64,000 nt of DNA from Liolophura sinensis (GCF_032854445.1 NC_088295.1:32146510-32210509), one strand, 5' to 3'. Shown: positions 44,514 through 59,065, numbered from the stretch's first letter. Numbers and translations are program-made. Notes: a model not told the origin generated them from the letters alone.

Positions 44514-44978
44514 TTGTTTAGATATTGTTAAAGAGACTATATTTTGTAGGAACCCAGACATAAAATACGTTCCTATTGATTTGCTGAGGCTAGTAGACTA
44601 GTCATGCAGATTTTGTCTTGCTGAAAAAGAGACTAAAATATATGAAATTCGCATTAGTGAGTTTCTTTAAACAATGTGAATTGACTGATGATTAACAAGC
44701 CACAAATAATTCCATTGCGGGTCACAATCTTGAGTTACTAGAAAAGCACTCTGATGCACTTTTGTGCACAAGCCAATTTCATTGGGCGTCATAATTTTGA
44801 GTTACCAGGGATGCATTCTGATGCACATTTGTAATAAAAGAAAATAGGGTTTTCGATATACCTGATGCATGATTGTCTTTCAACCGCTTGGACACCTCGG
44901 ATGATAACCAAAATGTGGATAGTTCGTCTATTTGCCAAGGCATGCATGCATGCATTGGACCATCTATTTGAAAGGGAA

Positions 44979-45018
44979 ATATATATATATATATATATAC
45001 ATATATATATATATATAC
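44979..45018. repeat. (AT)n microsatellite
   Basis: Directly visible. Confidence 0.95.
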
Positions 45019-45484
45019 ACACATGGTCTCATTGTTATACATGTTATACATACATTGTCTCATACATGTACATGCCATATATTGCAAAACGATGACATAG
45101 TGTTATCTAGTCAAATTCAAATATGTCATATTCAAATATGCACAGTGTTTGTAAACAGTCCTCACCACCGCAATGTCTATGTACGACCTATTTCTTTTTC
45201 TCATTGACAATACCACCCTGTCAAAGTGTTTGACTTGCTGGATATTGTTTGAAATGTCAATAATAATTGCTTTATGTACATAGATTGTAACATGTCGTAC
45301 AATTAAGGTAATCGACTTTCACATCAAGGAAAGTAAATATGATAATGATGGTACTTTAGAAAGACACTCTACAGACACTCACACTTTACAGTATGTTTAT
45401 CCCTTCACAGCTTTAGGATGCACCGTGTACATAGCGATGCATGGATTTTACATAGCGATGCATGGATTTATAATATTATGTACA

Positions 45485-45762
45485 TATGCTCGCTGGGGCC
45501 TCCGTGGCTCAGTCGGTTAGCGCGCTAGCGCAGCGTAATCACCCAAGAGTCTCTCACCAATGCGGTCGCTGTGAGTTCAAGTCCAGCTCATGCTGGTTTC
45601 CTGTCCGGCCGTAAGTGGGAAGGTCTGACAGCAACCTGCGGATGGTCTTGGTTTCTTCCGGGCTCTGCCCGGTTTCCTCCCACCATAATGCTGGCCGCCG
45701 TCGTATAAGTGAAATATTCTTGAGTACGGCGTAAAACACCATTCAAATAAATAAATAAATAA
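45485..45762 (+). mobile_element. SINE family 1, full-length reference copy (tRNA-like head, conserved core, (AAATAAAT)n tail)
   Basis: ggggcctccgtggctcagtcggttagcgcgctagcgcagcgtaatcacccaagag..gagttcaagtccagctcatgctgg..ccaccataatgctggccgccgtcgtataagtgaaatattcttgagtacggcgtaaaacacc..aaataaataaataaataa. Track ORFs here (45554..45872, -) are SINE-derived. Confidence 0.9.
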
Positions 45763-46823
45763 CATATGCTAGCAATAATTAAGCCACGCGGGTCGTGAGA
45801 AAAGTTTATTACTTTCGTTTTGTATATCAGTATATGGTACACATCGCCATAAATCGTCTCAGTCAAACACAAAACCCTTGGCCTATTTCATTTACTTTTC
45901 TACAGAAAAAAGGTCATTGTACCAACATCAGTTTATTGTACATGCAAACTTTTGTTAAACATTGTTTTCGTTTGAAAATAAAACGTATATATTCATGCTT
46001 GCTTTCCTTTCTGTTTTATTTATCTCTGTTCGTTCACTAAAAAAAATACCTTTTGTTTTGTATTGACGTGCAGAAGTCTCAGTAAGGTTCAGTACTAATG
46101 ATATATATTGCCATAGTTTATAATTAATTCCCCATACTGATACTTAAAAAAAAACATGTTAACGGATGGCACCACAGCAGTGTCCCTAAATCTCCGAGGC
46201 TCCGATAATCCCAGTCCTATTTTTCACAAAACTGACCAACAGCTGTTAGGTGATAAACCGACACAGTTAAATGTCAGTGAAACAGCTAGGACTGAATACC
46301 ACTTTTGCCCAGTGTTTGTCCGCCTCCATTTCCTGAAAAACACACAAATTTATACCTAGAACAAACTTTGAAGCCCCTGGTACAAAATGTTACCACTTAA
46401 TATGTAGGGGGAAAATCCAAAAAAGGCAGTGCAAAGTTTTTAAAGTATTTTAAAATAGCATGTAGGCCTAACATGAGCAAGACACAACCATAGTAAGAAT
46501 GTTTCGGGAGGGAGGAGAATACACGACTCTGTCGATAACCGCATCGAAATAAGCATTTTTATATAATTTGATTTATCGGAAGAAATGATAAAGTAATTCC
46601 CCTGTCGACATAATAACTAATCAAACTCTGCGCGAGATGCACTTGAAGTACTTCTGAGGGCCAGCTATCAGCGTTTGTAGAAAATCATTTAGAGTTACCT
46701 CCCCACCCATTGCCCAACAGAGGGTGTGGATAATACAACGACAACATGACGGTCAAATAGGCAACATCCATGTTTCGGAAGATCTTCTGCCTTGCAAGAA
46801 GACACATATCATTGTGTGCGAAC

Positions 46824-47366
46824 ATGACTGATGTACGCGGGCGGTTCTTTGTCAATCAGTTTCCTGATTACGACACAGGCTCAATCGTGACGATTGACGA
46901 GTCCCGATGGAGTGACGCAGTCCGGTCCCTGGCGGATGAGGTTTATGAAAACATGAAGCCCGAACCGGACAACTCGGGCGGTGGACTGTATGTTGGCAAT
47001 GCCGGGCTGGCGTACATGTTCTACTATCTATCAAAAATCAAACATCTGTCAGCTAAGAGGGAGAAATACCTCGAGAAAGCTATGGAGTATTTAGAACAAG
47101 CCATTGCCCACATAAACAGCAAGTCGTGTCGCGATCCCGTTACGTCGTTTATCATTGGCAAGACGGGAGTTTATGCGGTCGGTAGCGTTATATTAAATGA
47201 AATAGGCAGTGATAAGTCTTCCAAAATGGCAGTCCAGTTTGCTCAGGTGGCTAACGTGTGTAAAACTGCCGGAGATTTCCTAGGCTGTGGGTCTGATGAG
47301 TTATTTATCGGTCGTGCCGGGTATCTGTGCGGAGTGCTGTTTCTGCATAAAGCCTTGGGTCGAAAG
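46824..47366 (+). CDS. LANCL: LanC-like protein, copy 1, exon 1 (an in-frame upstream ATG at 46770 is also possible)
   Basis: MTDVRGRFFVNQFPDYDTGS..GLYVGNAGLAYMFYYL..ELFIGRAGYLCGVLFLHKALGRK aligns with the LANCL1/2 N-terminal half (RAFPNPYADY; GYTGWAGIAVLYLHL; EMLYGRIGYIYALLFV). Donor AAG|GTATAT. Confidence 0.8.
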
Positions 47367-56712: not shown

Positions 56713-56928
56713 GTGCCGCCCACGGCCTGTCCTCCATTCTCCAAATGCTGCTGTCTTTCCCTGACTATCTCCAATCGGACCCGGCCGCAGAGGCTGATGT
56801 CAAGGCATCCGTGGACTTCATGTTGAGTCTAGAACAGCCGAACTTTAACTATGCCCCTGCCATGGACGAGGTTGGCGCCCCGAGGAGTGAGGCTGATCAG
56901 CTGGTACATTGGTGTCACGGAGCTCCCG
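56713..56928 (+). CDS. LANCL: LanC-like protein, copy 2, exon 3
   Basis: Acceptor gttataccag| and donor G|GTATGT. Reads (G)AAHGLSSILQMLLSFPDYLQSDPAAEADVKASVDFMLSLEQPNFNYAPAMDEVGAPRSEADQLVHWCHGAP. Confidence 0.9.
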
Positions 56929-57775
56929 GTATGTCCTGCCTAGTAAACAAAAATAATCGCCTATACTTGTTATATTTTGAAGATGAAAACAAGGTTAAAA
57001 ACAAAGAGTATAAAACATTTTCATATTATCACCTAAAATGTATACGAGCGGTTTGTTGATAATGAATTTGAGACGTTAGTGCCAGTTTAGAGCTAACGCT
57101 TTAATGGAAATGTTTAAAACAGGGATCGATCAGATAGTGGTTGTTATAGAATTAGTTAAAATATAACGTTGCAAACAGGATACTATGTTTCTTTAGCAAT
57201 AAAGCTATTTTCTTTTCACCAAGCTCCCCTAAGTTAACCGAGCCCAAACGCAAACGTAAGATACCGGTAATGGTGACTGTACAGTCCATGGTTTAGGAAA
57301 CCCGAAAGCGGCTGTCTCTGGACAGGTGTGAAGTCATCTGGGAATAGCATTTCTTTGTAATGGGATATATTACTCTCGGACTTCATATGTAAGTATAGTC
57401 ATGGTGAAGATAGGCTTCAATATGATGAACCATTTTGAAAAAAACCGTAGGGTAATAGTAACTGGTTCGTGGTGGACTGACAGACACGAGTTTGAGGCTT
57501 TCCAATTATCAAGTATTAAAAATCGCGACATCATTGTTAACTGCAGCGGACGGGTCAAATTAGACCACTTAACCAGCACGCATATAACTGATAAATTGAT
57601 TGAGTGGTGATTAACGCTGTGCTCAAGAATTTTTCACTTACATCACGGCGGTGGCTTTATCAGGACATGTGATTCCTTTATAGAAGTAAGTGGTCGCAAT
57701 GGCTGTCCCTGGAAACAAGACGCATGGTTAGATTAGTATTACGCTGTGTAGAATGTCGTGCTTGTTCGAAAATGG

Positions 57776-57817
57776 GTATATATATATATATATATATATA
57801 TATATATATATATATAT
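57776..57817. repeat. (AT)n microsatellite
   Basis: Directly visible. Confidence 0.95.
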
Positions 57818-58029
57818 GTGGCAGTAATTAAATGAGAAATATTTGTCAAACCATTTGACAAATGCTTACAACAATTATAACTGGAAAACGAATGGCTAAA
57901 TGCTAAATGATTTTCGTACTAAAATTTAGGATACTATATCGTTTAAGGAACAGTTTTGGGTTTGCAGGCAACAGCTAAAATGTCTTCACTTATAAATCCA
58001 TTTACCCCTAATTGTGTTTGTTCCGCCAG

Positions 58030-58394
58030 GTATCGTGTACCTCTTCGGCCGAGCGTACGTCTTGTGGAAGGAGGAGAGATTCCTGGAGGCTTGTGTAAGG
58101 TGTGGGGAGATCACCTGGAAGTGTGGCCTGCTGAGGAAGGGACCCGGCATCTGCCACGGCGTGGCCGGTAGTGGTTACGTTTTCCTTCTCCTATTTCGTC
58201 TTACCAAAGATCCCAAGTATCTGTATAGAGCACAGAAGTTCGCCGAGTTCATATTCACGCCAGATTTCAAGTCCGGTGCCCGGCGTCCGGACACACCGTA
58301 CAGTCTGTATGAAGGATGGGCCGGAACGGCTTGCTTTCTGGGGGACCTACTACAGCCAGACAAAGCAGAATTTCCCTTTTTTGATGTCTTATAG
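58030..58394 (+). CDS. LANCL: LanC-like protein, copy 2, terminal exon (intact; stop TAG at 58392-58394)
   Basis: Acceptor ttgttccgccag|. (G)[120 protein letters not shown] matches the LANCL1 C-terminus (VIWQYGLLKKGYGLCHGSAGNAYAFL..KYLYRACKFAEW..RTPDTPFSLFEGMAGT..FLADLL.P.KA.FPAFEL). Confidence 0.9.
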
Positions 58395-59065
58395 AGAGTT
58401 GCCACCGGCCTGCGGATGTCACGCAAAGCAGTCGGAATATGGACATGTGATCCAACCATCACGAAGTTGGTAGCACAAGCATCATGGATTAATAATGAAA
58501 TGAGGACTGAACATGCCATGTAAATAGTTATATGGCATATTCAGTCATAATTTTATTATCAACAATGAATAGTTGTCATCCGTGAAGACTTATGTTAACT
58601 TCTTGCGCAATCATTAACATATGTTGTATTAAAAATGATTGTATTAAAAATTATAAATTTTGGGTGCAAAGGAATCTATTGTTTGGATACTTGCGAATGT
58701 ATGTAAAATCATGCAGTGGAATGGAATTAGAAGTCAACCAAGATAATATATATTATTGCATAAAGTACTCTGACAGTGACATAGTGAGGGAGTGGGTATG
58801 TATACGACTGGTGTAAGAAGCAGGTGGCAACGCAAAACCCCCACAAGCATATTAGTAAACAAAACCGAATGTATTTGAAAGTATAAAATACGAACAGCAG
58901 TTTATGACTGCTCTCCTATGACTGCTGTCTGTGACTTTATATTTCGATCAAGTCGTCGTGTGACCTCGTACATGAACACTGATATCTTTTAATTCAGTGG
59001 CCTCATTCCCTCCCACTTCGCAGGGCATAAAGTACGGTCAATTATAACAGTTGATGATAAAAACA

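Follow-up and report, generated by a model that had tools for sequence, protein, structure and literature searches.

A tandem duplication of LANCL3 in the chiton Liolophura sinensis, with one conserved copy and one that is probably a young pseudogene

When two nearly identical genes lie side by side in a genome assembly and one of them has a broken reading frame, is the broken copy a pseudogene, a gene that is read through another splice acceptor, or a product of the assembly itself? This question is raised by a stretch of 64,000 nucleotides from the chiton Liolophura sinensis (GCF_032854445.1, NC_088295.1:32146510-32210509; hereafter the window, in whose coordinates all positions are given), which carries two LanC-like genes in tandem that we assign to LANCL3, copy 1 upstream and copy 2 downstream. 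The sequence-only reading of the window had left all three options standing for copy 1. Our analysis favours a pseudogene, to which replacements at conserved residues and a neutral load of insertions and deletions (indels) point, while a scan of possible acceptors speaks against the isoform and the case for a haplotype or assembly artefact is weakened.

Comparison of the window with itself confirms the tandem duplication of ~7.4 kb that had been described, and reveals two head-to-tail units, ~96% identical, each with one LanC-like gene of four exons. A more sensitive comparison pushed the homology outward on both sides and set the unit edges slightly wider than in the earlier description:

44695..52075, plus strand: duplication unit 1, with ~2.1 kb of upstream sequence, LANCL3 copy 1 and ~0.95 kb of downstream sequence.
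52076..58795, plus strand: duplication unit 2, with upstream sequence, the intact LANCL3 copy 2 and ~0.4 kb of downstream sequence; homology to unit 1 stops at 58795.

The start-to-start spacing of the direct repeats is 7376-7387 bp over the upstream region and exons 1-3, which bears out the period of 7377-7385 bp given for that part, and falls to 7273 bp over exon 4, because intron 3 of copy 2 has gaps of 59 bp and 45 bp. In a full pairwise alignment the identity per 200-bp block is 95-100% between ~45760-51290 and 53150-58560; near the (AT)n tracts and a short interspersed element (SINE) the identity drops and gaps become more frequent.

The exon coordinates that had been read from the sequence match ours exactly for both copies, and all introns of both genes are GT-AG:

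46824..47366, plus strand: copy 1 exon 1; its ATG at 46824 agrees with the N-termini of orthologues.
48241..48364, plus strand: copy 1 exon 2.
49334..49549, plus strand: copy 1 exon 3, with one base carried into exon 4.
50757..51121, plus strand: copy 1 exon 4, broken by a -1 and a +1 indel.
54201..54743, plus strand: copy 2 exon 1.
55626..55749, plus strand: copy 2 exon 2.
56713..56928, plus strand: copy 2 exon 3, which holds GAAHG (His226) and WCHG (Cys290, His291).
58030..58394, plus strand: copy 2 exon 4, which holds Lys331 and GICHG (Cys336, His337) and ends in a TAG stop.

The translation of copy 2 is intact, as had been claimed, with a length of 415 amino acids plus the stop codon, which the earlier figure of ~416 had included. 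In copy 1, both indels and the stop that they enclose are found where they had been placed. Exon 4 has a deletion of 1 nt at 50766/50767, where copy 1 reads TA-CTG against TACCTC in copy 2, followed by two further features:

50822..50824, plus strand: premature TAA at codon 317, reached in the shifted frame from the normal acceptor.
50865..50868, plus strand: GGGG run, the +1 insertion that restores the frame; copy 2 has GGG at 58139-58141.

For two single-base indels, one -1 together with one +1 is roughly an even chance, and the apparent rescue of the frame by the second indel is meaningless because the stop falls between the two. As encoded in the assembly, copy 1 has C336 and H337 beyond the premature stop and lacks these zinc ligands. 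If translated, copy 1 would yield 294 native residues followed by 22 shifted ones, a predicted product devoid of Lys331, Cys336, His337 and the C-terminal glutathione-binding residues, in which the zinc site could not form for want of its cysteine and histidine. It is an established rule that a transcript with its stop in the last exon escapes nonsense-mediated decay, and the stop of copy 1 lies in the last exon, suggesting that its message, if transcribed, probably escapes as well. The introns and the 2.1 kb upstream of copy 1 align to those of copy 2 at ~96%.

Both genes are present in the L. sinensis RefSeq set. XP_064614100.1, "lanC-like protein 3", equals the copy 2 translation with 18 additional N-terminal residues from an upstream in-frame ATG, and XP_064615891.1, "LOW QUALITY PROTEIN: lanC-like protein 3", equals copy 1 with its frame repaired; both proteins are placed on a chromosome record of 96.4 Mb. 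The gene pair is thus already in public annotation, where NCBI has already flagged the frame problem of copy 1. Both RefSeq models start at an ATG 18 codons upstream of ours, at 46770 in copy 1 and 54147 in copy 2 (peptide MFRKIFCLARRHISLCAN...), a start that is probably too long, since the N-termini of orthologues align with the second ATG (46824 and 54201).

Nearly all named proteins among the top 120 matches are called lanC-like protein 3, LANC3 or LanC-like protein 3 homolog; a few of these 120 matches are generically named, and one UniRef entry, from Owenia fusiformis, is labelled 'Lancl1 protein'. Beyond the two chiton proteins, the next-best matches are 45-62% identical and come from molluscs, annelids, brachiopods, arthropods, echinoderms, hemichordates and amphioxus. 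The LANCL3 of Haliotis cracherodii (P0002) is 62% identical over its full length, contains the GAAHG, HWCHGAPG and GICHG motifs, and has four coding exons with breaks at amino acids 181, 221 and 294, compared with 181, 222 and 294 in the chiton; it differs in that the chiton gene is present twice in tandem, with one copy disrupted. Asterias rubens, a sea star, shares the last three LANCL3 introns with the chiton, and one extra intron splits its first block to give five coding exons. Judged by the names of the best matches and by the shared intron positions, the gene is identified as an orthologue of LANCL3, not LANCL1. The remark in the sequence-only reading that the gene has only four exons, far fewer than the nine of LANCL1, had therefore used the wrong comparator, as a four-exon structure is normal for mollusc LANCL3.

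The human enzymes LanCL1 and LanCL2 (PDB 3E6U, 8D0V, 6WQ1) are zinc-dependent and add glutathione to dehydroamino acids; to our knowledge, the biochemical activity of LANCL3 has not been established. Copy 2 matches the Pfam LANC_like profile (PF05147) with E = 4.8e-70 and 236 bits (cut-off 23.2), its residues 52-413 lying on profile positions 4-349/350, and matches the LANCL2 and LANCL1 crystal structures (6WQ1, 8D0V, 3E6U) over ~390 residues with E = 1e-73 to 1e-76. This similarity suggests an alpha/alpha-toroid fold for copy 2. LanCL1 has an active-site His219, zinc ligands Cys276, Cys322 and His323, and a glutathione-binding Lys317 (PMC9934072). Although the chiton gene belongs to another paralogue class than human LanCL1 and LanCL2, the zinc ligands, the catalytic histidine and the equivalent of Lys317 are all kept in copy 2, where the alignment places them at His226, Cys290, Cys336, His337 and Lys331. 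Copy 2 is thus predicted to be a complete LanC-like enzyme, with the active-site histidine, the three zinc ligands and the glutathione-binding lysine.

Evidence on the fate of the two copies comes from the direction of their differences, which we polarised by aligning both with 115 LANCL3 orthologues. Over 1247 coding positions there are 22 substitutions between the copies; 12 of these change an amino acid, and the codon struck by the deletion is a further difference. In 8-9 cases the residue of copy 2 is the one common among the orthologues and that of copy 1 is rare or never seen, the derived replacements in copy 1 being D52G, A114T, V149A, R205T, T219A, Y221C, A248T, P271L and, less clearly, V17D. 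The residue of copy 2 is found in 80% of the orthologues at D52, 85% at T219 and 98% at Y221, and both Thr219 and Tyr221 sit just before the catalytic GAAHG motif. Among the differing residues no site shows the reverse pattern against the same orthologues, with copy 2 derived, and three sites are uninformative. Such a one-sided distribution of protein change has a two-sided binomial p of 0.004-0.008.

The comparison of nonsynonymous (dN) and synonymous (dS) rates between the copies, which had been proposed as a check, gives dN = 0.0127 and dS = 0.036, with a non-coding (intron) divergence of 0.0365. Gene conversion, considered as the cause of the conserved exons, is not needed, because dS equals the intron divergence. 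When all replacements are placed on copy 1, its dN/dS ratio (omega) is ~0.66 and that of copy 2 is ~0. Against 17.4 replacements expected under neutrality, copy 1 has 12 (p = 0.11) and copy 2 has 0-1 (p = 5e-7). Therefore, copy 1 has evolved near neutrality for most of the time since the duplication, and copy 2 has been constrained. The indels agree with these rates: 27 indel events in 4138 bp of non-coding alignment predict ~4 in a neutral coding sequence of 1247 nt on one lineage, and two are observed. The indels of copy 1 fit the neutral rate of the surrounding non-coding DNA and need no special explanation.

The duplication, the two indels, the enclosed stop, the one-sided protein change and the orthology make it quite probable, as far as sequence can tell, that copy 1 is a real, young and unprocessed pseudogene. 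We infer that the two indels lie in the DNA of the animal rather than being consensus errors, and that copy 1 makes no functional protein. The duplication is specific to the chiton lineage and takes in the whole LANCL3 gene with ~2 kb upstream. In the history that we propose, a segment of 7.4 kb with the entire gene would have been duplicated in tandem in this lineage; the downstream copy 2 would have been held under strong purifying selection, and the upstream copy 1 would have lost constraint soon afterwards, gathering replacements at conserved residues and two frameshifting indels in its last exon that bring a TAA into frame. The cancelling of the two indels would be a coincidence with no functional meaning. 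Like other unprocessed, duplicated pseudogenes, copy 1 keeps its introns and flanks, lies head-to-tail with a conserved copy, and combines relaxed constraint with frameshifts and a premature stop; it is unusual only in a 12-nt cluster of third-codon-position differences at its first indel.

Several observations weigh against a pseudogene, and most of them equally favour its main rival, in which copy 1 is an intact, expressed and faster-evolving LANCL3 paralogue under relaxed or positive selection and both indels are errors of the consensus; this is, in effect, what the LOW QUALITY PROTEIN model of RefSeq assumes. Both indels are read from the assembly consensus, the coverage by PacBio HiFi reads is only 14x, and one of the indels lengthens a short run of G, from GGG to GGGG. 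NCBI retained copy 1 as protein-coding with a repaired frame and made no pseudogene call. Outside the 12-nt cluster, the two versions of exon 4 are closely similar, with the 96 nt between the indels identical and three differences in the next 255 nt; exon 4 differences are somewhat below full neutrality, which could reflect a late loss of constraint or recent gene conversion. The omega of copy 1 is below 1, though not significantly, and a fast-evolving functional paralogue would likewise give a one-sided protein change. The consensus-error explanation gains further from the exact cancelling of the indels, with one repaired frame giving a protein of 432/433 amino acids that is 97% identical to copy 2, and from the intact start codon and splice sites of copy 1.

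However, the deletion lies outside any long homopolymer and amid four clustered substitutions, which indel errors cannot make. It is also improbable that a HiFi assembly would contain two independent indel errors less than 100 nt apart: with a consensus error rate per base of 1e-5 to 1e-4, assumed rather than measured here, the probability of two indel errors in the copy 1 coding sequence is 8e-5 to 7e-3. Moreover, the loss of the near-invariant Y221 and T219 beside GAAHG is a pattern of decay, and even the repaired model loses or alters Tyr298, which is kept in 97% of orthologues. We therefore regard consensus errors in an intact copy 1 as unlikely. In a full-length protein search, no sequence beyond the two RefSeq proteins exceeded 62% identity, and a query of 101 amino acids centred on the indels gave no match above 73% identity. 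HiFi reads (SRX20411988), 68 resequenced genomes (PRJCA045379) and RNA-seq sets from five tissues (SAMN35319765-69) exist for this species.

The cluster at the first indel deserves separate consideration:

50761..50772 (copy 2: 58034-58046), plus strand: mutation cluster of five successive codons, each with a difference at its third base and nowhere else.

Codons 296-300 read ATA/ATC, GTA/GTG, TA-/TAC, CTG/CTC and TTT/TTC in copy 1/copy 2, the frameshifting deletion being one of the five differences. To find five of the 24 exon differences inside 13 nt has a probability of ~0.001, and their exact 3-nt spacing is a further 1 in 165. Random decay would not be expected to produce either the clustering or the spacing. 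An 8-nt palindrome, AGTATACT, arises in the copy 1 version, and the cluster may be a single complex mutation. Alternatively, a third and more diverged LANCL3-like coding sequence elsewhere in the genome could have donated it in a very short conversion tract. Another possibility is that copy 1 is an intact, fast-evolving paralogue whose indels are assembly errors. We consider it unlikely that either holds; if one did, the history of copy 1 would be more interesting than plain decay. With up to 3 mismatches allowed, both versions of the cluster are absent from the rest of the window on either strand, and tblastn detects no third LANCL copy in the window.

Could the two units be no duplication at all, but two alleles of one locus that the assembler set in tandem? 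The genome was assembled from 14x HiFi reads with a mean length of 8.3 kb by hifiasm, followed by purge_dups and Omni-C scaffolding, and GenomeScope gives a heterozygosity of 1.24% (PMC11068029); it was first published as L. japonica (PMC11068029) and later corrected to L. sinensis (PMC12441733). Population nucleotide diversity (theta-pi) is ~0.8% (PMC13334032). Marine invertebrate genomes are heterozygous, as this one is, and low-coverage assemblies can keep haplotypic duplications. The structure of the two units speaks against such an origin. Besides the genes, it includes the following features:

44695..44832, plus strand: 67-bp repeat, present twice in tandem at the left end of unit 1; in unit 2 it is single, at 52078-52148.
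45495..45760, plus strand: full-length tRNA-derived SINE within unit 1.
51290..51810, plus strand: segment of ~520 bp specific to unit 1, where it lies downstream of copy 1; nothing corresponds to it after copy 2, and it occurs just once in the window.
52847..53062, plus strand: tRNA-derived SINE with a shortened 5' end, in unit 2 at the position matching the SINE of unit 1.

The units diverge by 3.65% in 4138 aligned non-coding positions, ~3 times the genome-average allelic divergence, and are further set apart by their 27 small indels, the 520-bp unit-specific segment and the shortened SINE. The window contains no N bases, and the gap-free sequence passes from one unit to the other at a single clean junction, 52075/52076 (...GGGAGTGG|TGCACAAGCC...), with outer flanks unlike each other. 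Finally, purge_dups had been applied, and one of the two 'alleles' would have to be an old null allele with at least eight derived replacements. A false duplication of this kind is thus very unlikely.

The same features bear on how a true duplication arose. The duplicated unit contains a tRNA-derived SINE, two (AT)n tracts, a presumed promoter, the gene and 0.4-0.95 kb of downstream sequence; a SINE and an (AT)n tract had been described in it, and both are confirmed. The SINE occupies matching positions in both units, and its insertion therefore predates the duplication. The 520-bp segment was either gained by unit 1 through an insertion or lost from unit 2 through a deletion, and may change the 3' untranslated region of copy 1. 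Because of the local 67-bp tandem repeat, the left edge of unit 1 can be placed no more precisely than 44695-44766. We considered non-allelic homologous recombination between flanking repeats, for which the 67-bp repeat is present at the left edge and at the junction but not at the right edge, where it is missing; the microhomology is only 2-3 nt (GTG). Recombination between repeats is therefore unlikely as the mechanism, and a non-homologous or replication-based origin seems more likely.

Another explanation accepts the premature stop and holds that copy 1 is expressed as a truncated protein of ~316 amino acids without the zinc site, which has taken on a new role, such as a regulatory one. 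With its stop in the terminal exon, the transcript would be spared nonsense-mediated decay; the upstream region, splice sites and first three exons of copy 1 are intact, and the omega of its lineage is below 1. Nevertheless, the replacements strike conserved core residues, a LanC-type helical toroid minus its last helices would be unlikely to fold, and no positive support for such a protein was found, so that we give this explanation only a slight chance. Even less credible is a functional copy 1 that uses an alternative 3' splice site in exon 4 to skip the shifted stretch: use of the AG at 50860-50861 would bring exon 3 into phase with the restored C-terminal frame, for a product of 380 amino acids, but the resulting acceptor at 50862 is preceded by purine-rich coding sequence with no polypyrimidine tract, and its product would lack 35 conserved residues (ending GLLRK), including the equivalent of the glutathione-binding Lys317. 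When every AG between 50560 and 51000 was tested as a copy 1 acceptor, an open frame was obtained only from 50862, 50937, 50958 and 50991, the last three with still larger deletions, and the isoform was rejected as all open-frame acceptors remove at least 35 conserved residues.

If copy 1 is a pseudogene, this chiton should be entered in gene counts and orthology tables with one functional LANCL3, not two, and the LOW QUALITY PROTEIN model of RefSeq should probably be reclassified as a pseudogene, because the damaging replacements are one-sided. The locus would then offer a clean and datable young tandem duplicate, at ~3.6% divergence, early in the loss of function. This is an ordinary outcome of gene duplication, which opens no long-standing question and has little import beyond annotation. 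The resequenced genomes of the 68 individuals could tell whether the disabling indels are fixed. Duplication of LANCL3 may have occurred repeatedly in molluscs. In Dreissena polymorpha two LANCL3 proteins (P0023 and P0026) that are 98.8% identical lie on one chromosome-scale contig, and in Solemya velum two (P0005 and P0024) that are 69.5% identical do so as well, with locus tags three apart; all four are annotated as intact.

The SINE of the duplicated units, of which the window contains five copies, combines an (AAAT)n tail with a tRNA-like head that carries A and B boxes. The further copies, at 6060-6325 (minus strand), 43000-43110 (plus strand, partial) and 59065-59332 (minus strand), show 88-93% mutual identity, and the last of them lies inverted just past the right edge of the duplication. 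Neither Rfam nor ARAGORN reports an RNA family, tRNA included, in the window or in the SINE, so that the element is assigned by its A and B boxes, tail and copy number. The SINE at 6060-6325 abuts a decayed fragment of a long terminal repeat (LTR) retrotransposon on the minus strand at 6351-9378, in which the Pfam domains RVT_1 and RT_RNaseH lie in adjoining frames split by frame changes. Pfam scans of the long open frames elsewhere in the window gave only retrotransposon reverse transcriptase and RNase H, and identified no neighbouring host gene. Several minisatellites lie elsewhere in the window. One, at 26164-27700, consists of 51 copies of a 30-bp unit, GTAGGTTTGTTATCTACCAGTGTATAGCAT, with 89% matches, and is free of stops in one frame per strand, which produces apparent 'ORFs' (open reading frames) of 518-530 amino acids. 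Four other tandem arrays lie at 16-760, 18429-18652, 22891-23348 and 28721-29378, with periods of 27/51, 54, 33/99 and 58 bp, respectively. An unclassified dispersed repeat of ~360 bp is present as two direct copies, at 17586-17949 and 61264-61618, that are 88% identical.

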